Positions 2,826 through 59,045 of a DNA stretch of 64,000 bases are shown here, piece after piece. The notes below the pieces were generated by a model that saw only the letters and a list, made by a program, of their open reading frames with translations, ran no database searches and had not been told where the DNA came from. The translations under genes and the position numbers were made by a program. Source of the stretch: Candidatus Omnitrophota bacterium (GTDB lineage: Bacteria; Omnitrophota; Gorgyraeia; Gygaellales; Profunditerraquicolaceae); NCBI GenBank assembly GCA_963805065.1, contig CAWDSS010000010.1, positions 147,696 through 211,695 on the forward strand. The letters are read 5' to 3'. The first letter of the stretch is position 1, and every line of letters begins with the position of its first letter.

Positions 2826-3047
2826 ATGAATAAGACTATTTATTCAGAAGGTCACAAGGTGCTGGTAAATAAGTTGATAAGGGCTCGCAAAGAAAAGGGC
2901 CTTAGGCAGGGAGATGTCGCGAAATTGCTAGGCAGGACACAATCTTATGTCTCAAAAATAGAGGCTGGCCAACGCAGAGTAGACATAATTCAATTGAAAG
3001 AATTCGCGAAAATTTACAAAAAAAATCTTGATTTCTTCGTTAAATAA
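2826..3047 (+). CDS. XRE-family helix-turn-helix regulator (controller-protein size)
   Basis: 73 aa. LRQGDVAKLLGRTQSYVSKIEAGQRRVDI is a canonical XRE/HTH_3 motif. Confidence 0.8.
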   Translation: MNKTIYSEGHKVLVNKLIRARKEKGLRQGDVAKLLGRTQSYVSKIEAGQRRVDIIQLKEFAKIYKKNLDFFVK

Positions 3048-3107
3048 TATGCGTCTTCTATCTACTACAAATAACTCACCGGAAACAACTCTCTGTAAAC
3101 AGGTTAA

Positions 3108-3146
3108 AATAAAAGCGCCGCGGTGGTAAACCGTGGCGCTTTTATC
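3108..3146. terminator. bidirectional terminator between convergent genes
   Basis: AAAAGCGCCGCGG-tggtaaa-CCGTGGCGCTTTT with flanking A and T runs. It sits between the XRE stop (3047) and the terL stop (3162). Confidence 0.6.
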
Positions 3147-3161
3147 AAAATCTACTACTGC

Positions 3162-4844
3162 CTAGTAAGAAAATCTGTTCCAGCCGTACCAACCATAAGG
3201 CACAAGACCGTCGGGCGTAGGATAAACTGGCTCAGGATCTCCCGGCAGTGGAGGATAACTCCCGCCTCCAGCTAACCCAAAACTAAATTCATTACCATTA
3301 GATAGACGTACCGCAAGCTCTAAGGCATCTAATCCGTCGTCGTGTCGGCCTTTCGGGAAATACCTGCAGTCCTCCAAAAGCTGCCGGTGCTTCTTGCTGA
3401 ATTGCAAGTTGCCACTTTTAATACGCGGCCGTAGAGACTGAATCCTTGCAATTTTATCATCTTTATTAATCACTGCTTCGAGAGGAATATAAAGCCCCAT
3501 ATCCTCTCCTTTCTTCCTGACAAGATCCACAAGGACTCGCTGAAACTGGTTACTCTCAATCCCAAATTTAACAAACTTATACCTTAGACAATAAGCTAAG
3601 ATATCCTCGATTATCTTCTCTATGGGCCGGCGCTCTATATCAGCTACTATGATATAGAGTGTCTTAGAGGTTTCGTCTTTTGCCAATACGATAATAGCCG
3701 AGAAGTCTCCCTTAACCGTGCTTAACCCAAGGCTTGGATCGCAGGCGCCGTAAAACTTTACGTTATCGCCTAATAACTTCAATAAATCATCAATAGATCG
3801 CCCGGACGCATCCCAGTATACGATATTGTCTATGTCAAAAAGACAATCCCTAAGGTTAACTGGTGTGTTCTGGAATTCCGAAAGGAAACTAAGCTCATTT
3901 TCTTGCCGTATTTCCATAAGTCTGTGCAGGCTATAGCGCTTATCCCAAAGAAGCTTAGCTCCTTCATCCATTGCCATTTTATTCTCTTGATAATATTGAT
4001 AAGCTGCCGCGGGCCCACTCGCCCCCTTAAACTCCATTTTATGGTTGTAGATGTTAGCCCAAGTATCGTCCCATAAGTCCATGCGCCTAGGCCAAGTCAC
4101 AAGAGCAGGATATACCTTCTTAATCCACGTTGGGTACTCGTCTGGACAGACATATTCGCTCAAAAGACTGTAGGGATGATAAAGGTTACCAATAAAGATA
4201 TAATTGGTAACCTCTGAGCCAACTTTAAGAACCGACTTCTCGTACCAGTCTTTCATCTTGTCGCGCGATTCTACCCCAAAGGTGTTCTCGGCGTCTTCTA
4301 AATCGTCGGCCAGAACCAATGTCGGGCGGGCGGTTCCAAATCTGCGCCCGCGGATCTGCTGACCTGAACCTAGTGCCAAGACCAAAACCTTATTTCTAGT
4401 AATTATGTCTGACTGCCTCCAGCGCAGCAGTTTGAATTTACCGCTTGATTCGAATACTTCCGGAAAATCCAGCTTTAGCAATTCATTTTCCGTTAACTCC
4501 TTTTTGATGTTATCTAGTATCTGAGCTGCCTGCGAAGCTGTATTCGAAATAATCACAATAAATTCTTCTTTCGAATAGCAGATGCTGTAAATTACGTCAA
4601 TTAAGGTAACCGTGGTGCTCTTTCCGAATTCGCGCGGCGCGGCAATGGCAATCTTTTTGCCTCTTTCGAGCGTTGCGGCATCAAGTATGCGGTATATCTC
4701 AAGATGAGCCGCTGACGGGTCAAATTCCATATGGTGTCTCATATATAGCCTTGAAAATGTAAGCAGCGACTTGCTGCCTTCCTGTCTTCTTAATCTTGAT
4801 AGTTCTCTTGCGATATTATTTTTCATCTTGTTCCTCCTTTTCAT
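3162..4844 (-). CDS. terL: phage terminase large subunit
   Basis: 560 aa. Walker A is AAPREFGKST and Walker B is LVLADDLED. The C-terminal RNaseH-like nuclease acidic residues are present (YGACDPSLG, GRHDDGLDALELA). Confidence 0.85.
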   Translation of the reverse strand: MKRRNKMKNNIARELSRLRRQEGSKSLLTFSRLYMRHHMEFDPSAAHLEIYRILDAATLERGKKIAIAAPREFGKSTTVTLIDVIYSICYSKEEFIVIISNTASQAAQILDNIKKELTENELLKLDFPEVFESSGKFKLLRWRQSDIITRNKVLVLALGSGQQIRGRRFGTARPTLVLADDLEDAENTFGVESRDKMKDWYEKSVLKVGSEVTNYIFIGNLYHPYSLLSEYVCPDEYPTWIKKVYPALVTWPRRMDLWDDTWANIYNHKMEFKGASGPAAAYQYYQENKMAMDEGAKLLWDKRYSLHRLMEIRQENELSFLSEFQNTPVNLRDCLFDIDNIVYWDASGRSIDDLLKLLGDNVKFYGACDPSLGLSTVKGDFSAIIVLAKDETSKTLYIIVADIERRPIEKIIEDILAYCLRYKFVKFGIESNQFQRVLVDLVRKKGEDMGLYIPLEAVINKDDKIARIQSLRPRIKSGNLQFSKKHRQLLEDCRYFPKGRHDDGLDALELAVRLSNGNEFSFGLAGGGSYPPLPGDPEPVYPTPDGLVPYGWYGWNRFSY

Positions 4845-5508
4845 CTTTTGGTTTATCGTCCTTCTTCGTTAGTTTGTTTACTTCCTGATTTATCTCGACT
4901 TGCTCAATCCTTACTTTTAAAGCTCTAATCTTTTTTTCGGTTTCAGGATCAAGGGTACCCGCTTCTTTTGCTGCGCGCTCAATTTCACTTAACATGCTCT
5001 TAGCCTCTGCAATATCTCTTTCGCCATCCCCATCTGCTACGTGATGGAAAATATCTTCTACGATCTCCTGTGGCTTCAGGGGGAGATACCCCAATGTTTG
5101 CATTTTTTCAACCACCTCCTTTAAAACGCGCCAGGCCAGAAACTCCGACTGAGATTTCTCTCCGTTAGTCGCATCTGGACTGCGCGCAAGACGCATTAAA
5201 TGCTTATGATGCACCATAGCCTTCTGGAACATATTTCCTATAATGCATTTGGCCTGATTAATATCAGGGCTTAAGGCGTTTCGCTTCTCTATCTCTTGTA
5301 AATCTCGCCTTACGGTCCTCTCGGTTATCATAAGGATCTGTCCGATCTGCGCCTGCGTGTACCCCTCGCTGCTAAGAAATTCTACACAACGCTGTCTTAT
5401 TTCGTTAGTTAATGTTTTAGGATTTAAAGTACCGTCTTTAATTTGTTGAATCAAAGAAAGAATCGGCTCTTCATCGTCGGGGATTTCTTTTTTATTGTTA
5501 TTGCCCAT
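4816..5508 (-). CDS. putative terminase small subunit / sigma70-region-4-like HTH DNA-binding protein
   Basis: The ORF track extends to 5595, but MGNNNKKEIP (ATG 5508) gives an 11-nt overlap with the upstream gene. The HTH is GYTQAQIGQILMITERTVRRDLQEI. Its position directly upstream of terL supports the call. The acidic/basic C-terminal tail is low complexity. Confidence 0.45.
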   Translation of the reverse strand: MGNNNKKEIPDDEEPILSLIQQIKDGTLNPKTLTNEIRQRCVEFLSSEGYTQAQIGQILMITERTVRRDLQEIEKRNALSPDINQAKCIIGNMFQKAMVHHKHLMRLARSPDATNGEKSQSEFLAWRVLKEVVEKMQTLGYLPLKPQEIVEDIFHHVADGDGERDIAEAKSMLSEIERAAKEAGTLDPETEKKIRALKVRIEQVEINQEVNKLTKKDDKPKDEKEEQDEK

Positions 5509-6781
5509 CGATGACCTCCTTGAGATATTTTTTACGTATGTCTTCTGAAACTTTATCGATGCCTTTATAGGCAATGTACCGACGGACAATCGCATCGCAG
5601 TATTTCGGGTCTATCTCTATCCCAAAACAACGACGATCAATAGACTCCGCTGCAATTAATGTTGACCCGCTGCCCAAACATAGATCCAAAACGATATCGC
5701 CGCGTTCGCTGCTGTTGCGGATAGCGCGTGCCGCGAGTTCACAAGGTTTTTGAGTCGGATGTCGGTATTGGCTCGTCGGGTCTCGTTTAACCTGCCAAAG
5801 ACTGCTTTCGTTGACACCGCCATACCAGCGATGTTTTTCACCTTCCTTCCAACCGTAGAGACAAAACTCAGTTTGTTGATGATAGTCGCCGTAGGAAATT
5901 GCGAAATTCGGTTTTGCCCAAGTCAAAACGCAACCGATATGATAATTAAGATCGGTCAATAGTCGATGCATCGGTGCAAATTGGCAATGACCGTTCCAAA
6001 TATAGAATGAACATCCCGGCTCAAGCACTTTGTCAATATTGGCAAACAGCTTTTTAAGAAACTCTTCGTATTCCTCCTGGCTCAAGTTGTCCGCATAAAT
6101 TCTTTCCCAGTTACGCGAACGTTTAGGGCGAGCGGACTTGGGTCGCGGCCTGTCTCCGCCGAGATATGCGATATTGTAAGGCGGATCCATATTTACGAGC
6201 CTCGCCATTTCATTCCCCATAAGCAGCATTACGTCATCTAATATGGTAGAATCGCCGCAGAGAATACGATGGTTGCCGAGAGTAATAATGTCTCCGCGTT
6301 TGGTTTTCGGCTCTGAGATACTTTCAAGAGCGGATTGGAAATCATAATCATCTCCGTCCTTCTGTTCTCCGTAGCGGTCGAAAATCTGGCCAATCTCTGC
6401 AACATTAAAGCCCGTAACGGTTACGTCAAACTCTGGTATTTTTGATAACTCATCCAAAAGCGCAGCAAGTTTTTCTTTATCCCAACCTCCACCAACTTTG
6501 TTCAAAGCAAGATTAGCTGCTTTCTCTTTCTCCAAAGAGAAATCCACCACAAAAGCTTCGATATGAGTTATCCCTTTGGCCTTAAACACTTTTATCCGCT
6601 GCTCTCCGGAAATCACTTGATGTGTTTTTATATTAACCACGGGCAACCCCAGCAGTCCGAACTCATCAATGCTTCGTTCAATATTCTTGTATTCAGGGTC
6701 ACCCGGTTTTAAGTCAACCCGCGGGTTATAAGGTGAAAATTGATAATCATTGAGACAAATTGTCTGAATTGTGGGTTTCAT
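5498..6781 (-). CDS. ParB-like nuclease domain fused to an N4/N6 DNA methyltransferase
   Basis: 427 aa. The N-terminal part is ParB/Srx-like (YNPRVDL...ISGEQRIKV). The C-terminal MTase motifs are NMDPPYN (IV), HPTQKP and DLCLGSGST (I). A GAGGAGG RBS precedes the ATG. Confidence 0.85.
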   Translation of the reverse strand: MKPTIQTICLNDYQFSPYNPRVDLKPGDPEYKNIERSIDEFGLLGLPVVNIKTHQVISGEQRIKVFKAKGITHIEAFVVDFSLEKEKAANLALNKVGGGWDKEKLAALLDELSKIPEFDVTVTGFNVAEIGQIFDRYGEQKDGDDYDFQSALESISEPKTKRGDIITLGNHRILCGDSTILDDVMLLMGNEMARLVNMDPPYNIAYLGGDRPRPKSARPKRSRNWERIYADNLSQEEYEEFLKKLFANIDKVLEPGCSFYIWNGHCQFAPMHRLLTDLNYHIGCVLTWAKPNFAISYGDYHQQTEFCLYGWKEGEKHRWYGGVNESSLWQVKRDPTSQYRHPTQKPCELAARAIRNSSERGDIVLDLCLGSGSTLIAAESIDRRCFGIEIDPKYCDAIVRRYIAYKGIDKVSEDIRKKYLKEVIDGQ

Positions 6782-6872
6782 CTGTTACCTCCTCTGTTTG
6801 TATTTATGTTGAGTTGATAGTAAAAAACAACCTGTTACCACCTCCTTTCCCGGCTCTGCAGGCCCTAAAAAC

Positions 6873-6937
6873 CAAAAAAAACGCGATCATCTGCAAGCTT
6901 GTGTTTTCACATCACAGTATTTGCAGATAATCGCGTT
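6873..6937 (-). terminator. strong intrinsic terminator (minus strand)
   Basis: Minus strand AACGCGATTATCTGCAA-loop-TTGCAGATGATCGCGTT followed by T8 (plus-strand A-run 6874-6881). Confidence 0.65.
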
Positions 6938-7045
6938 TATGAATTGCGACTAAAGCCTTATGGGTCTTTTGGTCTATCTCTAACGAAAATCCCTTCCGGC
7001 TTTATGAATTTCTATTATGTCTAAAGAGCAATTGTTTCAGAAATT

Positions 7046-7073
7046 ACTATACACTATTTTCTTAATTTGTCAA
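7046..7073 (-). promoter_or_regulatory. sigma70-like promoter (minus strand)
   Basis: Minus strand TTGACA (7073-7068), 16 nt, TATAGT (7051-7046). It lies 29 nt after the stop of ORF 7102..7767 and ~110 nt upstream of the 6873-6937 terminator. Confidence 0.4.
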
Positions 7074-7101
7074 GATATGTTAAGGTAACAGTATTTTTTG
7101 A

Positions 7102-7767
7102 TTACTGGTGGGAGCCTTGTGTGAATTGACAATAAAGGCAGTCTTGTTTATAGGATGGAATTGAGCCATCATATGTCTTTTTTGCATTTACGAGGGCTTG
7201 CTCTATCCAAGAGCCATCCCCTTCTTGCGGTTCAAGGAAGAAATCAAAGGAAAGTTTACCTTCCACAAAACCACCATTCTTATTTACCTTAGTAAACAGG
7301 AAATACCCAGTCTTGGAAACTTTATATCCATTCTGAATAAGTAGCCACTGGTAAACTTCCATCTGACGCTTGTATTGTGGGTATATTTGGTATTGATTGG
7401 CTCCGGTAGCTTTATAATCTACTACGATTAACTCGCCTGCTGGATTAATCCATACATCATCCACAGCCCCAAAGACAAGAAAGTCTGTAGCCTTATGGTG
7501 AAATTGGATACCCGTAAAGTTATGTCGCCAAGTATCGATTTCCTTACATTTATAGGGAATGACGTTAATGTTATGTTTCTTGATAATGTAATGGGCTGTG
7601 CCGTTTTCGCGGCAGACGTCGAATTCCTGCTTCAGTAGGCCATCGATAGCAGAGTTAATCGTATATGGTGCTGGTGGTGGACGTTTAACGCCTTTCTTCA
7701 TGTCCAGCCAAAAGCAGCGTGGACAATCTAAGAATAACTCGAGTTTTGAACGAGAAAACTTGATCAT
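7102..7767 (-). CDS. Cas4/RecB-family PD-(D/E)XK nuclease with terminal cysteine pairs
   Basis: 221 aa. Motifs are GAVDDVW (D), VVDYKAT (DxK) and QMEVYQWL (QxxxY). Cys pairs sit at both ends (CPRCFW near the N-terminus, CLYCQF near the C-terminus), like the Fe-S staple of Cas4/AddB. Its ATG overlaps the RT stop (ATGA). Confidence 0.75.
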   Translation of the reverse strand: MIKFSRSKLELFLDCPRCFWLDMKKGVKRPPPAPYTINSAIDGLLKQEFDVCRENGTAHYIIKKHNINVIPYKCKEIDTWRHNFTGIQFHHKATDFLVFGAVDDVWINPAGELIVVDYKATGANQYQIYPQYKRQMEVYQWLLIQNGYKVSKTGYFLFTKVNKNGGFVEGKLSFDFFLEPQEGDGSWIEQALVNAKKTYDGSIPSYKQDCLYCQFTQGSHQ

Positions 7768-9581
7768 AATTGTAAGTTTTTAATTCTTTTAATGTGCTCT
7801 TTAATAATTGTGTGTCGGCTATATTTATCTTCAATCCTCTTCAGCAAAGAATTAAGCGATTTCCTTACGTTCCGATCATTATTCAAAGCTACAAACCAAA
7901 GACGCCAGATTTGATCTCCAATAAAAACCGAATCCAGTCCATGGAATTTCTTAATCTGATTAGTTGCATAATTTTTGTCATTAATAACGCACAGAAGAAA
8001 ATTTGCCATTCTTGAAACCGTTACGTTAAGATCTTGCGCAATCTCTCCTAGCATTTTTTTTGTTTTTTCAGGAGTATAAGATAACGGCAATAGCACAAGG
8101 GCGGCTCTTCGTATGTACCGGTGATTATTTTCATTCAGCAAATTTCTGACCTTACCTTCTGCAATTCCTTCATAAGATAGATAAAATAATGTGCCGATTG
8201 CTTGTACCCTTACATACCAATGTCGTTTGGATTTAAAAATTACAGAAAACATATTACGTAAAACTTGCTTGTTTCTTACTTTTAAATTGCGAAAAACAGC
8301 TACTAAATGTGCGGCCTGTAAATTATATAAAAATTTATGCCTGTGAAGATAAAACTCCATAGTTCTTAAAACTGGGGCAGTATTGATAAATGATCTAGAA
8401 TAACTACAAATTGCTCTAGACCTTATTGGGAATCTAATGAAATCACTTTTAAGACGATTTTTTAATAATGGAGTTTGAAGCACTCTCGCAGCGTTATAAG
8501 TCATAAATAACGCGGTTTCTAATTTCTTATCGAATTTCTTTCTTCTATATATTCTTTTGTATTCTTGCCGCAACTTAGATAATTGGGCTTTCCTATTAAC
8601 TCTTGAATTCTTAGAAGCTTCAATGATCTGTTTAATGTTTTCTGCTATTTCGTTATAGATTTCACTGCGCGCCTCTAAAGCAGTAAGAATCTTAGTTTTC
8701 TCAGCGTTCTGATTTAATCCGAGTTCTCGGAGCTTACCGCCCAATCTTAAAATAATTGCTATCGCACGTAATCTGGAAGAACTCAATATATGGATATCAT
8801 CACAGTACCTATACCACTCAATTTTTCCTTTTCTTCTCTCCTTCTCTAAGTAAGAATCTACTATATCTAAGTAATAGTTGCTTAAAATTCCAGAGACATT
8901 AGAGGAACCTTGTGGCAACCCACGATCCTGCCTTACATTGCAAGGATCTCTTAATGACCAACTTCTAAATATTTCTAGTATCATATTGATACCGCTTAAT
9001 TGCTTACCTGCTTTGAGCTTTAATATTTCACCTAGAGTTGAAAGATTAATATCTTCAAAATATGCAGTTATATCGGTCTTGGCTACATATTTATATTTCC
9101 CGCTGTCCAATCCGGTTATGATTTTTTGTATATACTCAGGCCATAAATTATACCAAGGTTCCTCAATTTTTATTTTTTCTCTTTTGTATCTAGGCAATAC
9201 AAAATAACTATGCTCTCTATCGCAAGTATACTGCAATTTTTTATCTTTTTTAAGTCGGTAAGCAGTTACCCCAGGATAAAGCCTTCTATCCAATTTAATA
9301 ATAAAATCTAGTAATAAGCGGTGAATGACCGTGAGGTCTAATATATCTACAATAATCCCTGGCCTAATCGCATATTCACCCTTAGGTAAATCAAAATTCT
9401 CCACTCTTTTTGGTCTATACTCTTTAGACTTGAGATCAGCGATGAGTTCATTTATTGTTTCTTTTAATTTATAGTCATAATCACAATATTTAAATGGATC
9501 TGGGGCAACGCTACGCTCCAAATCAGACACTGCTCTTTGAAAAGCTGCGTACATGTTTTTGTAATCAGATAACCGTGACAT
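7764..9581 (-). CDS. reverse transcriptase with a C-terminal alpha-helical repeat domain (UG/Abi-type, defence-associated architecture)
   Basis: 605 aa. RT motifs are LPKGEYAIRPG (1/2), KTDITAYFEDI (A), RGLPQGSSNVSGILSNYYL (B), YRYCDDIHIL (C) and NAEKTKIL (E). The C-terminal ~250 aa are helical and HEAT-like (HWYVRVQAIGTLFYL, HRYIRRAALVLLPL). There is no maturase X or En domain. Confidence 0.85.
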   Translation of the reverse strand: MSRLSDYKNMYAAFQRAVSDLERSVAPDPFKYCDYDYKLKETINELIADLKSKEYRPKRVENFDLPKGEYAIRPGIIVDILDLTVIHRLLLDFIIKLDRRLYPGVTAYRLKKDKKLQYTCDREHSYFVLPRYKREKIKIEEPWYNLWPEYIQKIITGLDSGKYKYVAKTDITAYFEDINLSTLGEILKLKAGKQLSGINMILEIFRSWSLRDPCNVRQDRGLPQGSSNVSGILSNYYLDIVDSYLEKERRKGKIEWYRYCDDIHILSSSRLRAIAIILRLGGKLRELGLNQNAEKTKILTALEARSEIYNEIAENIKQIIEASKNSRVNRKAQLSKLRQEYKRIYRRKKFDKKLETALFMTYNAARVLQTPLLKNRLKSDFIRFPIRSRAICSYSRSFINTAPVLRTMEFYLHRHKFLYNLQAAHLVAVFRNLKVRNKQVLRNMFSVIFKSKRHWYVRVQAIGTLFYLSYEGIAEGKVRNLLNENNHRYIRRAALVLLPLSYTPEKTKKMLGEIAQDLNVTVSRMANFLLCVINDKNYATNQIKKFHGLDSVFIGDQIWRLWFVALNNDRNVRKSLNSLLKRIEDKYSRHTIIKEHIKRIKNLQL

Positions 9582-9685
9582 AGTTATATCTTCAATAAAT
9601 GAATATTATCCTCAATCCACTTTCTTGCTTGTAGATCGGATGCCACATACATCGTAATGTAATTTTATTCCCAAACAAATATTTT

Positions 9686-10951
9686 CTAACGCAACACTAT
9701 CTTTTGCGTTTTAGCGTCATACTTATAGTTAACAATTCCTCCCGTCAAAATAAGCTCGACTGTTTTTTCAATAACTTCAATAGGAGCTATAAACCATTCG
9801 CGAGGACAATATTCAATACCCGCACTATCTACAATCTTTATATCTAAGCATGACTTCCCGAAGAATTTATGAAGCATGGATTCCATAAGGTTTGGCTTGA
9901 AGTTATAGCATTCATAATACGATACTATATGCACTGGCGCATTAAGGTATGTGTGGTCTTTTGCGGAGTTTTTTACACGTTTTTCAACCGAAGTAGATGA
10001 GAAACCTATCTTGTATAAATTTGCTATGGAGCTAATTTGCGGATTAGTACTTTTAGATTGTATTATATAAATAAACCCGGTCGAGGAGTCGTTTTTATCT
10101 ACATCATGGAGATTTTTTGACTTTTTAGGCTGATAATTCGTTATTCTCTTACCCTGCTTGTTTTTATATAACTCGGCGCTCAAAGATCTAAGAAGCATAT
10201 CCGACTCTAATCCATTTTCAAATATACATTTTAATCTTGCATTCACCTTTCCCTTGGTGGTTTTCCGCTCGCCCTTTTCTGCAACATATAGCATTATTCC
10301 TTTCAAAACATAAAAGCATCCTTTTTCTATTTGTTGTTCTTTTTCAAACTGCTTTAACTGTCTCGTTCCTTCTTGCAAGTTTTTGTGACATTCAATAAAT
10401 AAATGCTCAAATTCGTAAAAATTATCGCATTTCTTTCTCTGCGCCAAATAATCGGGCATATTTGTTTCCTTGGGCACATGCTTAATATTCAATATCTCTT
10501 CCCCACCTTTTTCGAGAATTCCTAAATCATCGCTTTTGAAAACATCATCTATTGTTCTATTAGTTTTGCCTTTATTGTTTTCACCCGAAAGATTCGAAGC
10601 GACATCTGATTTATTAGTTAGTCTCTTATTCTGCAATAGCCCATTTCTATCAAATTTAACTAATTCTTCTATCTTTTCGGGGTTTTGTCTAATGCCTTTT
10701 AGTCGAAAATATAATTTAGCTTCCTGGATATTGTCTTGCCCTGGTTCTCTATGGTGCGCTTCCACAAACTTTTGTATTTCGCCGAATGATTCAATTAATC
10801 TCTGCTTTTCAGATTTAACGGATGATGCCTTAGGTCTGACATTCAATAAACCCATTGCATCATCTTCGAATATCTTGCGGAGTTGTTCGTTCTTATCCAT
10901 TAGCGACCATTTTCCGTTTTTCATTACGTAAATATATAAGCGCCTCTGCAA
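9686..10951 (-). CDS. T5orf172/MUG113 (GIY-YIG-superfamily) domain protein
   Basis: 421 aa. The C-terminal part GFIYIIQSKS...LYKIGFSSTSVEKRVKN...ESMLHKFF...REWFIAPIEVI matches the T5orf172 pattern. The likely true start is 10924 or 10900; the latter gives an ATGGATAA-type 8-nt overlap with the helicase stop. Confidence 0.65.
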   Translation of the reverse strand: MQRRLYIYVMKNGKWSLMDKNEQLRKIFEDDAMGLLNVRPKASSVKSEKQRLIESFGEIQKFVEAHHREPGQDNIQEAKLYFRLKGIRQNPEKIEELVKFDRNGLLQNKRLTNKSDVASNLSGENNKGKTNRTIDDVFKSDDLGILEKGGEEILNIKHVPKETNMPDYLAQRKKCDNFYEFEHLFIECHKNLQEGTRQLKQFEKEQQIEKGCFYVLKGIMLYVAEKGERKTTKGKVNARLKCIFENGLESDMLLRSLSAELYKNKQGKRITNYQPKKSKNLHDVDKNDSSTGFIYIIQSKSTNPQISSIANLYKIGFSSTSVEKRVKNSAKDHTYLNAPVHIVSYYECYNFKPNLMESMLHKFFGKSCLDIKIVDSAGIEYCPREWFIAPIEVIEKTVELILTGGIVNYKYDAKTQKIVLR

Positions 10952-12818
10952 GTCTTTTCTCTAAAGGATCGGAAGAATTCATGTGGGGCTCGCTACTAGT
11001 ATTATTTACAAACGCTTTTATTTTGGGCCACAATATAATTGCTTCATCTAAAGTCATTTGCATTCTATTAAGCTCGATTGTTTCTTGTATAACTTTGAAT
11101 ATTTGTGGCGTTACAGATTTGGAAAGAATTTCAAATGCTTGCTGAAAAGGATTTATACTATCAATTAAATCTATATTTAGCTTGTCTATATCGACAAATT
11201 CTCCGGCCATCTTAATAAATCGCTGGCCTCCAATTTCTTTGATTTCCGATCGTTTAACTACAGAATCAGAAACAAGATGCTGCCTAACGACCTCGACCTC
11301 TTCCGTTGATAAATCGGGGTATTTCCTTTGGATTATTTTTGGAGTTAGCATTTTATTGATAACTTCTGGATCCATGATACCAGAAAGCGCCCTCACCAGA
11401 TCTTCGTCCTGCAAAAGACTGGCTTTAAGGTCATTTATATCTGATTCGAGAATTTCTTTTACCTTTGCCGTTGTGGGCTCTTTTAGCCCTTCAATCTTTA
11501 TTACGCCGGGCTCAGATTTATCACTTGCATTTTTTTTAGTTTTGAACTTAAAATTTGGCGCTATAACTTGTTCCATTAACAAAGAACAGGTTATGGCTTT
11601 TAACATATTATTTACAGAAATTCTTACGACATCATCGCTAGCATCTGGTTGGGCAATAAGATTTGTAAATTGTGTATGTGTTTTGTTATAACTATCTCTT
11701 GTGCATCGGCCGATTATTTGAATAATTTCCGTTAACGACCCTCTGTATCCCACGGTTAAAGCATGTTCGCAATAAGGCCAATCAAAGCCTTCTTTTGCCA
11801 TACCCAAAGCAATGATCAAATCCATATCATCTACATCTTTAATCTTTCGTAAATAATTGACAATTTTATCTCGTTCTTTCTGTTCATCATAAACAAGGTC
11901 TGCAATCTTAATAATTTTATTATCTTTTTTACGTTTTACGAATATAACTCCTGTGTGTTTATCTTGATGAATAACATCGCCTATTGTATCTAGTATCGTA
12001 TCTACTTCTTTATGCTTATCTTTTGTCGATTCTCCAGCATTAACATTGGGAATATGTATAATGGTCTTCTTATTCGTATCAAGAATCTCGCCAATAGCGG
12101 ACGTATATCTACCTTGATAGAAATGATACCCGATGCCTAAAGATTTTAAATAAGTATATCCGTTCAGCTGTTCATAGTAATTATAGGTTACTTTGGTAAA
12201 TTTACATTCGTCTTCTGGCAATAAAATAGGAATGCAATCACCTCTAAAATATGATCCTGTCATGGCTACAATATGTGCCTTTGATTTTCTAAGAACTTCC
12301 CTAAGCAATTCTCCTAATTGACTACTGATATCTGCCGAAACATGATGAAATTCATCTATCGCAATCAATGTCTTATCAAAATCTCCCTCGGCCAATCCCT
12401 CAAAAGCAAAACGTAAAGTCGCATGGGTACATATCAATATTTTATCGGAACCTTTCATAAAACGGTGGAACGCTTTAACTTTACCCGGTTCACCACCAGG
12501 CGTACAAAGATTGTCTTTAGGTTTTGGGTCCCAGTCAGCAAAAAAGCCAGTTGATTTCAAATTAGTGTTTTCAAATGAAGCGCCGATTGATCGCTCCGGA
12601 ACCGCAACAATTACTTTCTTAAGACCTTGATTGGCTAGTTTATCTAAACCAATAAACATCAGCGCCCTAGACTTACCTGATGCTGGCGGAGCCTTAATAA
12701 TCAAATACTGGGAATTGCGTGCTTTAAAAGCGCGCTCCTGCATTTCTCTCATGCCGTATTTGTTAGTTTTGGTACTCTTTCCACTTCTTTCGTATTCAGC
12801 TCTTACTATGTCTGGCAT
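10893..12818 (-). CDS. SF2 DEAD/DEAH-type (ResIII-like) helicase
   Basis: 641 aa. Motifs are I KAPPASGKSRA, Ia VAVPERSIG, II AIDEFHHV, III MTGSYFRGD and VI QIIGRCTRD. No nuclease motif is visible. Its start overlaps the upstream MTase by 23 nt. Confidence 0.85.
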   Translation of the reverse strand: MPDIVRAEYERSGKSTKTNKYGMREMQERAFKARNSQYLIIKAPPASGKSRALMFIGLDKLANQGLKKVIVAVPERSIGASFENTNLKSTGFFADWDPKPKDNLCTPGGEPGKVKAFHRFMKGSDKILICTHATLRFAFEGLAEGDFDKTLIAIDEFHHVSADISSQLGELLREVLRKSKAHIVAMTGSYFRGDCIPILLPEDECKFTKVTYNYYEQLNGYTYLKSLGIGYHFYQGRYTSAIGEILDTNKKTIIHIPNVNAGESTKDKHKEVDTILDTIGDVIHQDKHTGVIFVKRKKDNKIIKIADLVYDEQKERDKIVNYLRKIKDVDDMDLIIALGMAKEGFDWPYCEHALTVGYRGSLTEIIQIIGRCTRDSYNKTHTQFTNLIAQPDASDDVVRISVNNMLKAITCSLLMEQVIAPNFKFKTKKNASDKSEPGVIKIEGLKEPTTAKVKEILESDINDLKASLLQDEDLVRALSGIMDPEVINKMLTPKIIQRKYPDLSTEEVEVVRQHLVSDSVVKRSEIKEIGGQRFIKMAGEFVDIDKLNIDLIDSINPFQQAFEILSKSVTPQIFKVIQETIELNRMQMTLDEAIILWPKIKAFVNNTSSEPHMNSSDPLEKRLAEALIYLRNEKRKMVANG

Positions 12819-15474
12819 GTTGGCTCCGTTTTAAATTCTCCATTTCTTCATATAACATAAACAAGTGTTGTAAACGATCATTATCTGATTCAAACGGTTT
12901 ATCTTGATATAACGAGTCTATTTCTAAATCAAGTTTGCGATGAGCCACCGAAAGACTTTGCGGCATTTTGAATGGATCATAAAGTTGAGCCATGGTTTTC
13001 TCAGAGTGTAACTGTCTTTGTTCAACTATTTTAAAAACAAGCCTTTCGATGCACTCTTTTTTCTCCTTAGAAATATCAGGCATGGGGAAGGTGTTATATC
13101 CTAAAGCCGATGAATAACGAATGCGCGTTTCAAGACTTCCGCATACAGCGCGGATCCAAATCATATGCATCTTAGAGGCAATGATTCCAAATAACCAGGT
13201 TTCCGCTTCGTAAATAGCAAAAGCTAAGTTAGTTATAATTGTAGAGCTATCTACAAAACCTACTGGCAAATATTCTCTTCGCTCTGAAGAAACGGAAGGT
13301 ATAATCAAGGACTGATATTTCGTAATATTCGTCTCCCTAAATTGATGTGGCCTTTTTGCTAAATCGTGCGCGGCGCTATCACTACTACTTAGTCGCATTT
13401 TTTTGACAGAATCAACTCGTAACTTAATAGGATTTATTGCAAGAGCGTCTTTCTGATCTTGATCCAATATCCACAAACACCATCTTTCGATATCATTAAT
13501 GAACTCATCGGATCCCATAAGTCTCTTAATAAACTTAGCTGCGGAAGGATATTGTTCTAAAAGAACGTTTTTCTCTTCTGTGGTTAATATTAAATTCCCC
13601 CCGTCATATGGCATGTTACCTTTTGGCATTAAAGGTAGATTTGATATTGGGGTTGATCTCTTATGGACAATAATGTTGCTTGTAGCGGTTAGGTATGGGC
13701 TTATATTATTTACTTGGTGCGCCAATCCATTAATATAAAGTTTTTTTGTACGCTTCTCTCCGGTTTTCTGCATTCCAATAATAATCACAGTAACTCCAGT
13801 ATTTTCAGTTGCATTGCTTGCCCACTTAAATGAAGTATACGCAAAGCTTATTTCTACTTTTTGTTTTAATAAAATGGGCCAAAGTAACCCAACTTGTTCA
13901 CCTTGACAAATTGAATTTGTTGAACCAAAGGCAAATTTAGAAATAGTCGATTTAATATAACGACTACCAAGATAGAACCAGCAAGCTGCGTAGTCTAAGT
14001 TTTTAGTATTTTCAAATCCGTTAAAAACAAACGCTACGTCGGATTTTTGTTCTTTTGATTGTTTGCGAGCGCCCTTATATGGTGGGTTTCCTACCACATA
14101 GACTTCGTCATTTTCTTTTTTAGGGCATATTTTACTCCAATCTAAGCGCGTTGCATTCCCGCTTACTATATTGGCAGTTTCTTTGATTGGGATATGTTTA
14201 ACCAAACCTTCGAACTCGTTCAAATATTCGACATCCATTTGATATTCAGCTAGCCATAACGACAACATTACCATTTCAAACGCGAGAGGGTCTTGTTCAA
14301 TACCATAGAATTGTGAAAGCCTTATCTGAGAAGAATGTGGTTTTTTAAACTTCCCCAGTTCCACTAATTTTCTGATTATTTTAATTTCGAGTTTACGTAA
14401 TTCTTTATAGGCAACTATCAAAAAATTTCCAGACCCACATGCCGGATCAAACACTTTTATTTTTATTATTCGACCAAGCAAAGAAATCAAACGTCTCTGA
14501 CTCCCTTTAGATCTATTTAATTCGTCATAAAGGCCATCTAAAAATAATGGTTTAATCATCTTTAATATATTTTTAACGTTCGTATAGTATATTCCTATAT
14601 AGCCCCTGTTTTTTGAAGAGACAGCAATTTGAATCATTGAGCCGAAAATATCCGGATTTATGGTTGCCCAATTCATCTGACCGATTTCAATTATTATTTG
14701 CCTCGCTTTTCTAGAAAGAAGAGGGGTTATTTTTGATTTCTCGAATAAGCCTCCATTAACATATGGAAATTTTCTTAAATATTCTGGGCAGCCTTTTCTT
14801 TCTTTTTTATTTAAAACATTGAATACTTTTTCGAGATAGGAATTAAGGTCGTTGCCATCCTGTTGCGTATGCGAAATGACAGAATTAACAAATAAACCTT
14901 TATTATATAATCCGACATCTTCGGCGAAAAAACAAAAAAGAAGTCGTGACAAAAAAATATTAAGATTATGCTGCTGGTCAAAGGTATTTAAGGTATTAGT
15001 TTTTCTTAACTCATCGACTAGCCTAGAAATACATTCCGTAGCTCGAACATCCACTGGACTCTCATCTTTATAGGTTGCTTTTTCAAATCCAGCTAGCGGT
15101 AAGAAAAAATCGCAATATGCTCCTAAATTTTTAATATCGATCTCTAATATGTCATTGTTTTTCGTATCGGCTGCCAAGAGCTTTTTAAAGTTAGTTATGA
15201 TAATAAATCTCGGCTTATATTTAGCGCATATACAATTCTTTTGTACCTCAGACATAGCTTGATGGATATCTTTTCCATATATAGACTTAAAAAATAATTT
15301 CTTTTTCAGAACAACCTCTCCGGAATTTTTTGAAATATTAGAACCTCCATCCTGCAATCTTACAATAGAAGCTTTTGGGTAACCATAAGCCGATAGTAAG
15401 TCATAAATAAAAGATTTCTCGGAGATAGTCTTTGTAATATTTAAAAGGTTGTCTTCGATTTGATTTATATTCAT
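12796..15474 (-). CDS. MmeI-family (type IIL/IIG-like) N6-adenine DNA methyltransferase with no recognisable nuclease catalytic triad
   Basis: 892 aa. Family-typical blocks are LLFCFFAED, FPYVNGGLFE, INPDIFGSMIQ, YYTNVKNILKMIKPLFLD, FDPACGSGNFL (motif I), GNPPYKG (motif IV), STNSICQGEQVGLLWP, RWCLWI, LETRIRYSSALGYNTFP and LYDPFKMP. The N-terminal region has ..VVLKKKLFFKS.. where a D...ExK would be expected. Confidence 0.85.
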   Translation of the reverse strand: MNINQIEDNLLNITKTISEKSFIYDLLSAYGYPKASIVRLQDGGSNISKNSGEVVLKKKLFFKSIYGKDIHQAMSEVQKNCICAKYKPRFIIITNFKKLLAADTKNNDILEIDIKNLGAYCDFFLPLAGFEKATYKDESPVDVRATECISRLVDELRKTNTLNTFDQQHNLNIFLSRLLFCFFAEDVGLYNKGLFVNSVISHTQQDGNDLNSYLEKVFNVLNKKERKGCPEYLRKFPYVNGGLFEKSKITPLLSRKARQIIIEIGQMNWATINPDIFGSMIQIAVSSKNRGYIGIYYTNVKNILKMIKPLFLDGLYDELNRSKGSQRRLISLLGRIIKIKVFDPACGSGNFLIVAYKELRKLEIKIIRKLVELGKFKKPHSSQIRLSQFYGIEQDPLAFEMVMLSLWLAEYQMDVEYLNEFEGLVKHIPIKETANIVSGNATRLDWSKICPKKENDEVYVVGNPPYKGARKQSKEQKSDVAFVFNGFENTKNLDYAACWFYLGSRYIKSTISKFAFGSTNSICQGEQVGLLWPILLKQKVEISFAYTSFKWASNATENTGVTVIIIGMQKTGEKRTKKLYINGLAHQVNNISPYLTATSNIIVHKRSTPISNLPLMPKGNMPYDGGNLILTTEEKNVLLEQYPSAAKFIKRLMGSDEFINDIERWCLWILDQDQKDALAINPIKLRVDSVKKMRLSSSDSAAHDLAKRPHQFRETNITKYQSLIIPSVSSERREYLPVGFVDSSTIITNLAFAIYEAETWLFGIIASKMHMIWIRAVCGSLETRIRYSSALGYNTFPMPDISKEKKECIERLVFKIVEQRQLHSEKTMAQLYDPFKMPQSLSVAHRKLDLEIDSLYQDKPFESDNDRLQHLFMLYEEMENLKRSQHARHSKS

Positions 15475-15504
15475 TGTGCTCGCTTAATCGACCCCCGGGT
15501 CATA

Positions 15505-16416
15505 TTAAAGGCGCTTTAATTTCTTTTGATATTCGCGTATAGTTTTTGCAACATATTCGGCTAATTTAACAGGTACGGCATTGCCAATTATCTGTTCTAA
15601 AGAAGTTTTTGTTCCTTTGAATTTGAATAAAGCTGGAAAGGTTTGAATATGTCCTCTCTCAATCGTTGTTAGCGCCCTTACCTTTGAAGAAATAGCTACT
15701 ACGTCTCCCGGATGTTTTTTGTAAGCTTTCGGAATCGGCCGATTCACGCCACGTATTGTAGCGCTTGGCTCATGAATACTAAAAACGGCTCTTCTTTTAT
15801 AGCTTCTTGGATGCACATAATAGTACTCTGTTCCTAATAAATCTCCTAGATAATCATGAATGGTCATTTGTCTATCTGATTTATTTTTGTCGAGATACTG
15901 TTTTAGAAATTGATCTTTTGAGCCCAGGTGCCCAATCATAAAAAAACGCCTCCGCGCCTGAGGAACGCCGCAATAACTTGCGTCGAGTATATCCGTAGTC
16001 AAGCCATATCCAACGCTTTTTAATATCTGAGATGCTTTTTTTAGAACCTTACTTTTATCTATGGTATAAACGTTTTCCATCACAAACCATTCGGGCTTAG
16101 AGATAGCTACAATTTTAGCAAATGCTATCGTTAGATTCGCCCTACCTGACCTTTCATTTCGTTTTCCTGCAATAGAGAAGTCCTGACATGGCGGGCCACC
16201 GATTATAATATTAGGTTTCAACGAACACACGAATTCTATACTTTTATCTTTGCTCAGGTCTAAATTGTAAATAGGATGATTAAAGTTATTCTTATAAACG
16301 TCAATAGCAGGACCCCAGTTATCGAATGCAGCCAATATTTTAAACCCGGCATTTTGAAAACCTAGTGACATGCCACCGCAACCAGAAAACAAATCAACTG
16401 TACTTAAGTTCTGCAT
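15505..16416 (-). CDS. DNA (cytosine-5)-methyltransferase, copy 1
   Basis: 303 aa. Motifs are I DLFSGCGGMSLGF, IV GGPPCQDFS, VI ENV, VIII QARRRFF and X GNAVPV. Confidence 0.9.
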   Translation of the reverse strand: MQNLSTVDLFSGCGGMSLGFQNAGFKILAAFDNWGPAIDVYKNNFNHPIYNLDLSKDKSIEFVCSLKPNIIIGGPPCQDFSIAGKRNERSGRANLTIAFAKIVAISKPEWFVMENVYTIDKSKVLKKASQILKSVGYGLTTDILDASYCGVPQARRRFFMIGHLGSKDQFLKQYLDKNKSDRQMTIHDYLGDLLGTEYYYVHPRSYKRRAVFSIHEPSATIRGVNRPIPKAYKKHPGDVVAISSKVRALTTIERGHIQTFPALFKFKGTKTSLEQIIGNAVPVKLAEYVAKTIREYQKKLKRL

Positions 16417-16421
16417 TTTCG

Positions 16422-17351
16422 TTACTTTTCCCTATCTTTTATTAAATCATTGCTGTATTCAATTATGCTCTTAGCAACAAATTCTGCGAGTTTCACAGGT
16501 ACAGCATTGCCTATAATTTGATTTAAAGCCGTTTTAGTGCCTTCAAATTTGTATGTTCTAGGGAAGGTTTGAATATAACTTCTTTCTCTAACCGTTAAGA
16601 TTCGTAATTTATTGGTAATTGCTACGGGATCCCCAGGATGACCTTTATACCCTTTTGGAATGGGGCGATCTACTCCGCGTATCGTTGGGCTCGGTTGATG
16701 AATACTGAAAATGGCTCTCCTCCCATAACTCGTTGGGATTCTAAAATAATGCTTTAGTCTTAAAGAATCTCCCAAATAATCATAAATGGTCATTTGTTTA
16801 GATAATTTATTCTTATCAAAATACGGTTTAAGAAAATTATCCTTTGAGCCTAAATGACCAACCATAAACAAACGTTTTCTTATCTGAGGAACGCCGCAGT
16901 AGCTAGCATCGAGAATATCTGTAGTTAAACCATATCCGGTTTCTTTAAATAATCGATATATTTTATGAATTAAGTTACTTTTTGTAATACGGTCTACGTT
17001 CTCCATAACAAACCAGTGGGGTTTAGAAGCAACTACGATCTTCGCAAACGCTATAGTTAAAGCAGCTCTTCCGAGTTTTTCATTGCGGTGTCCAGCGATG
17101 GAAAAGTCCTGGCAGGGAGGACCGCCGATAATAACGTCAGACTTTATAGAACGTATGATCTCCGCGCTTTCTTTGACACTTAAATCTAAATCATAGATAG
17201 GATGGCTGAAATTATCTTTATATACTTGAATAGCGGGCTTCCAATTATCGAATGCGGCTATTATTTTGAATCCGGCGTTCTGAAACCCTAGAGACATTCC
17301 ACCGCACCCAGCAAATAAATCAACGACTGAATATTTTTTCGTTTTCTGCAT
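16422..17351 (-). CDS. DNA (cytosine-5)-methyltransferase, copy 2 (paralog of copy 1)
   Basis: 309 aa. Motifs are DLFAGCGGMSLGF, GGPPCQDFS, ENV, QIRKRLF and GNAVPV. It is roughly two-thirds identical to copy 1 by eye and separated from it by 5 nt. Confidence 0.9.
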   Translation of the reverse strand: MQKTKKYSVVDLFAGCGGMSLGFQNAGFKIIAAFDNWKPAIQVYKDNFSHPIYDLDLSVKESAEIIRSIKSDVIIGGPPCQDFSIAGHRNEKLGRAALTIAFAKIVVASKPHWFVMENVDRITKSNLIHKIYRLFKETGYGLTTDILDASYCGVPQIRKRLFMVGHLGSKDNFLKPYFDKNKLSKQMTIYDYLGDSLRLKHYFRIPTSYGRRAIFSIHQPSPTIRGVDRPIPKGYKGHPGDPVAITNKLRILTVRERSYIQTFPRTYKFEGTKTALNQIIGNAVPVKLAEFVAKSIIEYSNDLIKDREK

Positions 17352-17385
17352 AACCGTATCCTTTCTTTTCGGCTTTGAGAATATT

Positions 17386-17844
17386 TTAGATTAAGCGAGC
17401 TTTTGTTATCTTGTTATACATATTTTCAACCTTAATAGCACAATTTTTGGAATTTTTGATCATCTCGAAATCCCAAAACCGAATTATTTTCCACCCTTCT
17501 CTCTTTAATGACATATTCACCTGCTTATCTCTTTCAATATTTTTCTTTATTTTATTAACCCAATAATGCTTCCTTCTTTTAAAAGAATGAATTTTAGTAG
17601 ACATGTTTTTATAACCATGCCAGAAAGATGAATCGCAAAAAACTGCTAATTTATGTTTCGACCAAGAGAAATCTGGTGTTCCAAGTATATTTTTTTTGTT
17701 TTTCCTATAGCCACGTAACCCAACTTTACATAATGCGGATGCCATTAATCTTTCTATTTCAGTACCCGATGACTTTATCCGCGACATAGTATACGAGACC
17801 ACTTCTCTAGGTCTTTGCCCTTTATTAACAGTTGTATTTTTCAT
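17386..17844 (-). CDS. vsr: very short patch repair endonuclease
   Basis: 152 aa. MSRIKSSGTEIERL...LGTPDFSW..HKLAVFCDSSFWHGY matches the Vsr pattern. It is adjacent to the C5 methylases. Confidence 0.85.
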   Translation of the reverse strand: MKNTTVNKGQRPREVVSYTMSRIKSSGTEIERLMASALCKVGLRGYRKNKKNILGTPDFSWSKHKLAVFCDSSFWHGYKNMSTKIHSFKRRKHYWVNKIKKNIERDKQVNMSLKREGWKIIRFWDFEMIKNSKNCAIKVENMYNKITKARLI

Positions 17845-18022
17845 AAACCTTATTAAAATTATTATTGTGATTCTTAGACCATGCCTCTATCTCGTCCTTG
17901 CGGAACCGCCATTGTCCACCAGCCTTAAAAGATGGTATCTTTCCTTCTCTGGCAAGACGCCGTACAGTAAATGAATGCAGTTTAAGATATTTCGCTAACT
18001 CTTCTACAGTAAAGGTTTCCAT
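17825..18022 (-). CDS. excisionase/MerR-type HTH DNA-binding protein
   Basis: METFTVEELAKYLKLHSFTVRRLAREGKIPSFKAGGQWRFRKDEIEAW is the HTH_17 excisionase-family pattern. The track start 18043 was moved to Met at 18022. Its 3' end overlaps the vsr start by 20 nt. Confidence 0.65.
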   Translation of the reverse strand: METFTVEELAKYLKLHSFTVRRLAREGKIPSFKAGGQWRFRKDEIEAWSKNHNNNFNKVYEKYNC

Positions 18023-18063
18023 GGGTCCCCTCTTATATAACAAAATGTAGCAACTTGTAGTTG

Positions 18064-18092
18064 ATTATACTGCTTCCCTATGCCTTTAACAA
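18064..18092 (-). promoter_or_regulatory. candidate promoter for the leftward 11-kb gene array
   Basis: Minus strand TTGTTA (18092-18087), 17 nt, TATAAT (18069-18064). It lies in the divergent region between the HTH gene and the DUF2924 gene. Confidence 0.35.
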
Positions 18093-18166
18093 TAAAAAAA
18101 TACCTCTCTTATTACCTTGCTATATGGCGATTTATATGCCTATATTGTACTGAGGAAACCAGAGTT

Positions 18167-18622
18167 ATGAAAGAAGCTATATCTGCCAAAATCGCCAAGT
18201 TGCAGAGCGCCTCGTTTAAGGAGCTGAATAAGACATATAAAGAGCTCTTTGGCAAGGCTGAAACTGCCAGCCACAAGACCTATCTATTCCGTAGGATCGC
18301 TTATAGACTGCAGGAGCTCGAATATGGCGGTTTGTCGCAAAAGGCAAAAGATAACCTAAAAGCGCTGATTGCCAAATACGATCCTATCAATAACGCTGCC
18401 TTTAGGCCTGCGCCACCGCGGCTAAACGCATCTAATTCTAAAGACAGACGCCTGCCTATACCGGGTACCATGATCAATAAGGAATACAAAGGCTCGCGCT
18501 ACCAGGTTAAAGTCTTGGAGAACGGCTTTGAATATAAGGGCAAAATTTACACTTCTCTCTCGGCAATCGCTAAGGAGATTACCGGAGCGCATTGGAACGG
18601 ATACTTATTCTTTAGCCTATGA
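18167..18622 (+). CDS. DUF2924-family protein (usual partner of large serine recombinases)
   Basis: MKEAISAKIAKLQSASFKELNKTYKELFGK...YLFRRIAYRLQELEYGGLS...YKGKIYTSLSAIAKEITGAHWNGYLFF. A GAGGAA RBS precedes ATG 18167 (the track start 18080 is rejected). Its stop overlaps the recombinase start. Confidence 0.7.
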   Translation: MKEAISAKIAKLQSASFKELNKTYKELFGKAETASHKTYLFRRIAYRLQELEYGGLSQKAKDNLKALIAKYDPINNAAFRPAPPRLNASNSKDRRLPIPGTMINKEYKGSRYQVKVLENGFEYKGKIYTSLSAIAKEITGAHWNGYLFFSL

Positions 18623-20529: not shown

Positions 20530-20607
20530 TGGGGTGGCTAACGGGAATCGAACCCGCAACCTTTAGAGCCACAGTCTAACGCTCTAACCAATTGAGCTAT
20601 AGCCACC
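20530..20607 (-). tRNA. tRNA-His (GTG)
   Basis: Hand-folded as G(-1)-GTGGCTA..GCTCAATTGGTTAGAGC..TTAGA-CTGTGGC-TCTAA..GCGGGTTCGATTCCCGT-TAGCCAC-C-CCA. The extra 5' G and C73 are typical of tRNA-His. CCA is encoded. Confidence 0.9.
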
Positions 20608-29230: not shown

Positions 29231-29269
29231 GGCATCCACCAAACGTTTCATTAATGAAACGTTTGGTGG
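29231..29269 (-). terminator. hairpin at the tmRNA 3' end
   Basis: CCACCAAACGTTTCA-ttaa-TGAAACGTTTGGTGG is a perfect 15-bp stem whose right arm includes the tmRNA CCACCA end. Confidence 0.5.
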
Positions 29270-58997: not shown

Positions 58998-59045
58998 ATC
59001 AGATTCTGTGTAACGTTTAATGTGTAATGTGTAACGTGGGTGAAG

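Follow-up and report, generated by a model that had tools for sequence, protein, structure and literature searches.

A promoter-leader-terminator unit upstream of a methyltransferase-terminase operon in a satellite-like element of Omnitrophota: a candidate gate on operon expression

The 64,000 nt analyzed here (the window) are positions 147,696 to 211,695 of contig CAWDSS010000010.1, assembly GCA_963805065.1, from a Candidatus Omnitrophota bacterium. They contain an integrative element in which three genes on the minus strand form a core operon (6781-3162), namely a ParB-N/N6_N4 DNA methyltransferase (MTase; 6781-5498), protein X (5595-4816) and the terminase TerL (4844-3162). Protein X has 259 amino acids and a weak sigma-70-region-4-like helix-turn-helix (HTH), and is a possible small terminase. 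Immediately upstream of the MTase gene and on the same strand lies a unit composed of a promoter, a gene-free leader and a long intrinsic terminator, which is the subject of this study. Related loci from other genomes are referred to by the letter L and a number.

Promoter, leader and terminator upstream of the methyltransferase gene

The unit starts with a sigma-70-type promoter, TTGACA-16-TATAGT (7073-7046, minus strand), which matches the consensus at 11 of 12 positions and is the top-scoring promoter site within 5000-10000. In the 64-kb window six sites reached at least 11 of 12 matches, whereas first-order Markov simulations predict 1.7. One of the six (31321-31349) is located directly upstream of tRNA-Leu and serves as a positive control; because the tRNA-Leu promoter matches, this sigma-70 consensus is used in this organism. 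Transcription is predicted to start at about 7039-7037 on the minus strand. A -10-like CATAAT at 7019-7014 (about +20 to +25), with which CATATT and TATTT are aligned in L175 and L236, is a possible pause signal. Between the terminator and the ATG of the MTase gene no sigma-70-like site with at least 9 of 12 matches was found, and expression of MTase-X-TerL therefore appears to need read-through of the terminator.

The predicted leader RNA extends over about 165 nt from the transcription start to the end of the U-tract (7039-6874, minus strand). No open reading frame (ORF) of at least 20 amino acids is present on the minus strand from the promoter to the terminator. Inverted repeat and folding analyses delineated a hairpin, P1 (7004-6951), with an irregular interior, the 19-nt arms of which (7004-6986 and 6969-6951) pair at the base as UAAAGCC/GGCUUUA. 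A 17-nt direct repeat, UAnUnGnAAUUCAUAAA, occurs twice (7017-7001 and 6952-6936), each copy just 5' of a hairpin; it is particular to the window, no copy having been seen in homologous leaders.

The terminator (6938-6874, minus strand) has an 18-bp stem followed by U8. Its 18-nt arms (6938-6921 and 6896-6879) are 94% complementary, with 17 Watson-Crick pairs and one G-U pair. They enclose a loop of 24 nt with a nested UGUG/CACA mini-stem, and the T8 run is located at 6881-6874. No other non-repeat hairpin of the terminator type in the window is as strong (-25 to -29 kcal/mol); a simple terminator scan missed this one because its loop exceeds the 8-nt limit of that scan. The whole 176-nt unit folds with z = -4.2. 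For the 103-nt leader without the terminator z is -1.65, and 13 of 200 shuffled sequences fold equally well; hence the structure signal is mostly that of the terminator.

Downstream of the terminator, 91 nt separate the hairpin from the MTase start codon at 6781. This segment carries a duplicated Shine-Dalgarno (SD) motif of 13 nt (6844-6832 and 6794-6782), 12 of 13 positions being identical in the two copies, which are 50 nt apart. The second copy is the ribosome-binding site (RBS) of the MTase gene. The first copy, GGAGGTGGTAACAG (6846-6832), is followed by a TTG-initiated mini-ORF of 8 codons (6830-6804, MFFTINST*).

A first-pass annotation of the window had listed the promoter, an ORF-free stretch with an internal stem (TAAAGCC/GGCTTTA), a 17-bp hairpin with T8 at 6937-6873, a distance of about 90 nt to the MTase start codon and an SD-like duplication with the second copy as RBS. 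All of these features are present; the stem corresponds to the base of the P1 inverted repeat, and the terminator stem measures 18 bp. The accompanying suggestion that the duplicate might sequester the RBS had to be dropped, since the two copies are direct repeats and unable to pair with each other. Just upstream of the -35 element, the 9-nt sequence CUGUUACCU (7091-7083, minus strand) is perfectly complementary to both SD copies (AGGUAACAG). An anti-SD mechanism based on this sequence was considered and set aside: it lies upstream of -35, it is compatible with chance (expectation of about 0.2), and it was not seen in the L088 leader sequence. It would occur only in read-through transcripts coming from the upstream nuclease gene.

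Related leaders and distribution of the unit

Searching with the intergenic region of the window (nhmmer) identified a homologous region in L175 (E = 4e-6) reaching from the promoter to beyond the terminator, and weaker matches in L236, L088 and L242. A profile derived from four leaders also found L165. None of these five loci has a reverse transcriptase (RT). The upstream genes encode a lipase-like protein in L175, a second methylase in L236, and a DUF3800 protein together with an HTH protein in L088. A perfect TTGACA is found at the equivalent position in related leaders. Among L175, L236 and L088 the leaders are 59-73% identical compared with 35-42% identity at third codon positions of the adjacent MTase gene, and this excess indicates purifying selection on the non-coding leader.

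For these three leaders, RNAalifold predicted that P1 and a small P2 are enclosed by an outer helix, P0, with the terminator following this domain. Compensatory pair changes set L088 apart from L175 and L236, four of them in P1 and one in P0; the covariation in P0/P1/P2 rests on three to four sequences. The terminator stem likewise keeps its pairing through compensatory substitutions, which surround an invariant apex, GUGUCCAGACAC, in L175 (1865-1876), L236 (1984-1995) and L088 (7869-7880). This apex sequence occurs once per element, and UGUGAAAACACA takes its place in the window. L236 carries an extra hairpin upstream of the promoter, which would insulate it from upstream transcription.

A covariance model was built from L175, L236 and L088 with the window left out. 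Its best match in the 64 kb, 6864-7039 on the minus strand, begins at the predicted transcription start and scores 24.8 bits (E of about 3e-4 on a rough calibration); the next match in the window has an E-value of 0.02. The aligned parts of the window are the 5' segment, a P0-like helix (AUAAAG/CUUUAG), the terminator and the U-tail, with P1 and P2 treated as deletions. Matches of the model to L165, L090, L157 and the window align mainly via the terminator and are thus no proof that the P1/P2 domain is present in the window. Because the match bypasses this domain and 3 of 8 homologous core pairs of P1 are mismatched in the window, its leader is, as judged from these alignments, a divergent member of a leader family whose constants are a promoter, a hairpin domain and a long terminator. 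No further leader relatives emerged from a pattern scan of viral contigs, and blastn of the region against 50,697 phage records gave no match.

Rfam searches detected no family, neither with E-values up to 10 on 6000-8000 nor at the gathering threshold on the whole window, nor in five homologous loci. The lone sub-threshold match, to RF01065 (23S-methyl), was not reproduced in the homologous leaders. The leader is thus a candidate for a new cis-regulatory RNA family absent from Rfam. An origin from protein-coding sequence was also considered. One frame of the leader (6995-6915, minus strand) reads GFSLEIDQKTHKALV, recalling the C-terminal MTase motif CFGIEIDPKYCDAIV, and within the terminator loop AAATACTGTGAT matches the KYCD codons of related MTase genes exactly. 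Descent from a decayed MTase 3'-end was rejected, as neither Pfam nor BLASTP supports homology; the same applies to a decayed copy of small genes of the relatives (149-237 amino acid proteins, zinc-ribbon ORF), for which tblastn gave no match.

The best-conserved part of the leader is the block after the terminator, AGAGCCGGGAAAGGAGGTG (UUUUAGGGCCUGyAGAGCCGrGAAAGGAGGUG), shared by the window, L175, L088, L242 and L165. Just upstream of the MTase gene, a conserved ORF of 56-59 amino acids encoding a zinc-ribbon protein with two CxxC pairs is found in many relatives, as in L081 (6852-7031), L090 (7759-7929), L156 (upstream of 1364), L240 (3330-3500) and L242 (1347-1520). The protein carries ...GEAFPN.CPLC..., has no match in Pfam or NCBIfam and is not encoded in the window, where the conserved SD, as in L088, L165, L175 and L242, precedes only tiny, non-conserved ORFs. 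The first SD copy of the window corresponds to the SD that precedes the zinc-ribbon ORF or degenerate mini-ORFs in relatives; together with its mini-ORF it is probably a relic of, or a stand-in for, this small ORF. The copy itself would be either a relic or a ribosome-loading site.

The distribution of the arrangement was surveyed in the 520 nt upstream of MTase starts by searching for a promoter with at least 10 of 12 matches and, at a distance of 40-260 nt downstream, a hairpin of no fewer than 7 pairs and a stability of -12 kcal/mol or better that ends at a T-run. Such a unit was detected in 12 of 40 unique loci, compared with 0 of 40 on the antisense strand and 11 of 400 random 520-nt windows of the same loci. 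In a set of 45 loci, 14 had promoter and terminator, 12 only a terminator and 5 only a promoter. The order promoter, gene-free leader, terminator was seen in 13-14 loci and the reverse order once (L191). Of the 45 loci, 26 have a long-stem terminator (median stem 18 bp) no more than 330 nt before the MTase gene; tandem pairs follow the promoter in L089, L094 and L167. The cargo of unit-bearing loci differs and comprises RT plus nuclease, helicase, TIR, DUF3800, lipase-like and AAA_13/DUF2130 proteins.

Several leaders contain further conserved or repeated motifs. In L094, L095, L167 and L172 the entire promoter including the spacer is conserved (TTGACATTTCTsAAwyTyrTGrTATATTT) and the downstream leaders are unalignable; the spacer conservation suggests a regulator binding between -35 and -10. 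GAGAAUU is repeated 4-6 times in and around the terminator loops of L089 (7100-7250), L094 (about 4760-4900) and L167 (about 4800-4950), alongside the tandem terminators, and GAUUGAAGAUUGA is repeated in the L172 leader (about 4880-4960). These repeated motifs could be sites for an RNA- or DNA-binding regulator. An operator common to the leader promoter and the promoter of the Xre gene of the element was rejected, as the only sequence present in both, the 8-mer TAACATAT, is what chance predicts.

The host element and its cargo

The element is flanked by the host gene surE (below about 430) and by tRNA-His (20530-20606). An Xre-type HTH gene on the plus strand (2826-3047) is convergent with TerL and is a candidate regulator; it is found at the same position in L088, L089, L236, L238 and L242 and is thus a conserved member of this family of elements. 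The integration module at the far end, also on the plus strand, consists of a DUF2924 gene and a large serine recombinase (18080-20220), with homologues at the equivalent place in L088, L240, L188 and L191. The cargo upstream of the unit, on the minus strand, comprises a Cas4-like PD-(D/E)XK nuclease (7767-7102), a UG21-type RT (9581-7764), a T5orf172 protein, a helicase, an MmeI-type enzyme, two C5 methylases and Vsr. Genes for capsid, tail or lysis proteins were not found, and the element is therefore compact and integrative, about 17-18 kb long, rather than a lambda-type prophage.

Homologues of the MTase number in the thousands (about 3,900), and many carry names of proteins from Omnitrophota or Omnitrophica metagenome-assembled genomes (MAGs). 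In every related locus long enough to show it, the MTase-X-TerL trio is syntenic. Downstream of it there is usually a convergent Xre gene with host genes beyond, and upstream there is variable cargo, including TIR, DUF3800, SIR2, type I/III restriction enzymes, a lipase-like protein, AAA_13/DUF2130, or RT plus nuclease. Several related loci carry DUF2924 and a serine recombinase on the opposite strand. The recurrent element spans 2826-20220 in the window, 4305-12441 in L088 and 511-7166 in L240, which represents a minimal version of about 7 kb; it also recurs in L089, L090, L236-L239 and L242. The closest TerL relative (88%) is known as a protein record and stands outside the DNA comparisons. 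From its gene content the element looks like a terminase-encoding, satellite-like defense carrier, and a literature search found no description of this element family.

Two observations concern other parts of the window. A tmRNA gene at 29264-29674 (minus strand) was recognized by Rfam with 158 bits and was not reported by ARAGORN. On the plus strand of the host part, a palindrome about 55 nt long (GGGGACGTTTCTATTTTT...AAAAATAGAAACGTCCCC, then a T-run) is present three times (46202-46256, 55851-55906 and 59040-59114); the copies look like a repeated terminator or an element of the REP type.

A proposed terminator gate, its alternatives and known systems

On balance, and with slightly better than an even chance in our judgment, the unit acts as the cis-regulatory leader of MTase-X-TerL in a compact, serine-recombinase-mobilized, satellite-like element, where the promoter-proximal terminator would form a default-off gate. 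Polymerase would start at the strong, constitutive-looking promoter at 7073-7046, transcribe the leader of about 165 nt and, provided that termination is efficient in vivo, stop by default at the 18-bp/U8 terminator (6938-6874). A short RNA would be released and MTase-X-TerL would stay silent. The same hairpin would also block read-through from the upstream cargo genes for the RT and the nuclease. The core operon would be expressed only once polymerase becomes terminator-resistant, and such regulated read-through probably needs a factor rather than ligand-driven refolding, because no competing fold beyond a 5-bp helix was found. The likely agent would be an antitermination factor, either produced upon induction or brought by a helper phage, that is loaded at the promoter or the leader; X, Xre and a helper-phage factor are candidates. 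A more far-reaching proposal assumes an undescribed satellite-like family, distributed over Omnitrophota and neighboring phyla, in which a constitutive promoter is held by the long terminator and released by a helper-phage antiterminator or by a factor recognizing the P1 loop or the terminator apex. It is conceivable, though we would not call it likely.

Several results weigh against a regulated gate. No Q-, N- or LoaP-like antiterminator was detected among all genes in 2826-20220 (Pfam, PHROGs, PADLOC, NCBIfam). Co-transcriptional folding gave no mutually exclusive antiterminator structure, only a 5-bp alternative helix, and an antiterminator fold in the window was accordingly rejected. The P1 hairpin of the window is degraded, and the window leader shares only about 50% identity with those of relatives. 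L088 has kept the leader and terminator and is missing the promoter; in L238, L240 and L242 a similar promoter directly drives a gene for a protein of 149-237 amino acids. The unit is not universal, 14 of the 45 loci having neither element at the thresholds used. Finally, the source is an uncultured MAG lineage, and the unit is described at the level of sequence. The first-pass annotation had proposed an antitermination switch gating the terminase operon in a lambda-type setting. The architecture of such a switch is supported, as the same order recurs in related elements and no later promoter is recognizable; the mechanism is not, as no antiterminator was found. The lambda-type setting does not apply to an element without structural or lysis genes.

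The same annotation had offered a second interpretation, in which the leader is a structured non-coding RNA (ncRNA) that works with the adjacent RT; it was evaluated here for a role as template or scaffold, such as is known from DRT2, DRT3, DRT9 and retrons. The unit and the RT-nuclease pair indeed share a strand, with the unit about 30 nt further downstream, and some UG/Abi RTs need a neighboring ncRNA (PMC9226505). However, UG21 is a Class 1 UG/Abi RT with alpha-repeat C-terminal domains for which no ncRNA has been reported (PMC9226505), and the leader does not accompany its homologues, a result that the annotation itself had named as refuting its claim. The RT-nuclease module is 81% identical at the DNA level to L081 over 9588-7124 of the window and 74% identical to L082/L083 over 9582-7202 (RT proteins 89% identical in L081 and 77% in L082). 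Homology ends at 7124 and 7202, respectively; in L081 the nuclease is followed by a 1114-amino acid helicase gene, in L082 by an HTH gene, and neither has the leader. More distant RT homologues (56%, L084-L087) stand alone in chromosomal islands, no match to the intergenic region of the window was obtained by nhmmer in any RT locus, and no relative of the RT was found in IMG/VR. Conversely, the homologous leaders of L175, L236 and L088, as well as analogous promoter-terminator units in L090, L094, L095, L167, L172 and others, belong to elements without an RT. As the UG21 RT is present only in the window, L081 and L082 among the related loci (tblastn), the unit belongs to the core operon and not to the cargo, and as related elements keep the arrangement with or without an RT, a gate fits better than an RNA partner of the RT, to which we assign hardly any probability. 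The RT and nuclease themselves resemble a cassette with sharp homology boundaries (7124-9588 of the window versus L081 259-2723, 81% nucleotide identity). In L157, a locus without an RT, and in L089, whose RT of 330 amino acids is unrelated, a 78%-identical nuclease lies directly before the leader promoter; the nuclease is thus not an obligate partner of the UG21 RT.

A stand-alone small RNA gene, whose product (about 165 nt) would act either in trans or upon the element's own transcripts like the CI immunity RNA of P4 or the C4/CB immunity RNAs of P1/N15, would account for the self-contained organization from promoter to terminator, the purifying selection and the covarying P0/P1 helices in relatives, the insulating hairpin of L236, and the terminator apex GUGUCCAGACAC that stays invariant in three relatives as its stem varies. 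Against it, Rfam including the C4 family gave no match, and the C4 covariance model found nothing even at E-values up to 10 in 6000-8000, nor in the homologous loci. Target boxes of the seqA/seqB/seqC type are not seen flanking the leader, where only P1, the terminator and weak alternatives of 4-5 bp occur; no such boxes are conserved in relatives, and there is no second copy of the conserved motifs elsewhere in the elements. The leader of the window without its terminator is not significantly structured. Moreover, leader sequences differ almost completely between subfamilies, and because the architecture stays the same, a role in cis fits better than a target in trans; we consider a small RNA gene unlikely. 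We see little probability in a cis-acting RNA antiterminator of the HK022 put or EAR type, by which P1 would modify its own polymerase and cargo-derived polymerase would terminate, so that the hairpin is an insulator and not an off switch. This would agree with the conserved hairpin domain between promoter and terminator and its compensatory changes, with the negative search for a protein antiterminator in the element, and with the location of the terminator downstream of both the cargo genes and the promoter. It is at odds with the empty Rfam result, the degraded P1 of the window, the promoterless leader of L088, and the tandem terminators of some relatives, which argue for a tight block. About as improbable is an ordinary operon boundary at which the hairpin ends the cargo transcript and a constitutive MTase promoter leaks through without regulation. 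The nuclease gene does end, at 7102, 28 nt before the -35 element without a terminator of its own, and in 12 related loci the MTase gene is preceded by a terminator without a strong promoter. A mere boundary would not lead one to expect the order of promoter and terminator in 13-14 loci versus one reversed, the unusually long stems (median 18 bp) with compensatory changes and sometimes in tandem, or the separate hairpin upstream of the promoter in L236.

If the terminator gate works as proposed, it would be the control point deciding when widespread, undescribed small integrative elements, which carry reverse transcriptases, restriction systems, TIR, SIR2 and similar cargo, turn on their terminase and methylase. 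One promoter and one hairpin would then offer a testable handle on induction or helper-phage sensing in lineages not yet cultured, and with a helper-released switch the methylase and terminase would be on exactly when the helper is present. The analysis also removes a false lead, since the UG21 RT is here without evidence of a flanking ncRNA partner.

Compared with known systems, the unit shares with the PR'-6S-tR'-Q region of lambda a strong sigma-70 promoter, a short RNA reaching to an intrinsic terminator, and a terminase operon without another recognizable promoter. The 6S RNA of lambda has 194 nt versus about 165 nt predicted for the leader of the window. In contrast to lambda, the element encodes no Q-family protein, the gene upstream of the unit being that of the PD-(D/E)XK nuclease, and it has no lysis, head or tail genes, so that MTase-X-TerL is not a phage late operon. 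With the P4 PLE leader (CI RNA), the C4 RNA of P1/P7 and the CB RNA of N15 it has in common a constitutive promoter and transcripts ending early before genes of the active cycle, and P4 is a satellite. RF01065 (23S-methyl) of Lactobacillales also combines two hairpins, of which the second is a terminator, with a similar linker (UUCAUAAACGC), and it too precedes a methyltransferase gene. However, the match reached 23.7 bits versus a gathering threshold of 50 (E = 0.72 in a 2-kb search), it is absent from the homologous leaders, and RF01065 precedes an rRNA methyltransferase whereas the gene in the window encodes a DNA methyltransferase. Membership was therefore rejected as a chance resemblance of architecture. 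The ncRNAs of defense RTs (DRT2/UG2, DRT3/UG3+UG8, DRT9/UG28, retron msr-msd) are likewise non-coding, partly structured regions adjoining a UG/Abi RT gene, but the leader of the window does not travel with the RT and occurs at MTase-TerL operons without one. Phage satellites (PICI, P4-like, PLE) resemble the element as a whole in being small and integrated, with a recombinase (of the large serine type as in PLE), packaging-related genes, no capsid or tail genes and variable defense cargo. The element differs from them by a full-length TerL and a ParB-MTase and by the lack of visible hallmark genes of the described families, and its satellite-like nature is deduced from its genes. Taken together, a known regulatory design, the promoter-proximal terminator, seems to be present here in a new form, attached to an apparently undescribed satellite-like family.

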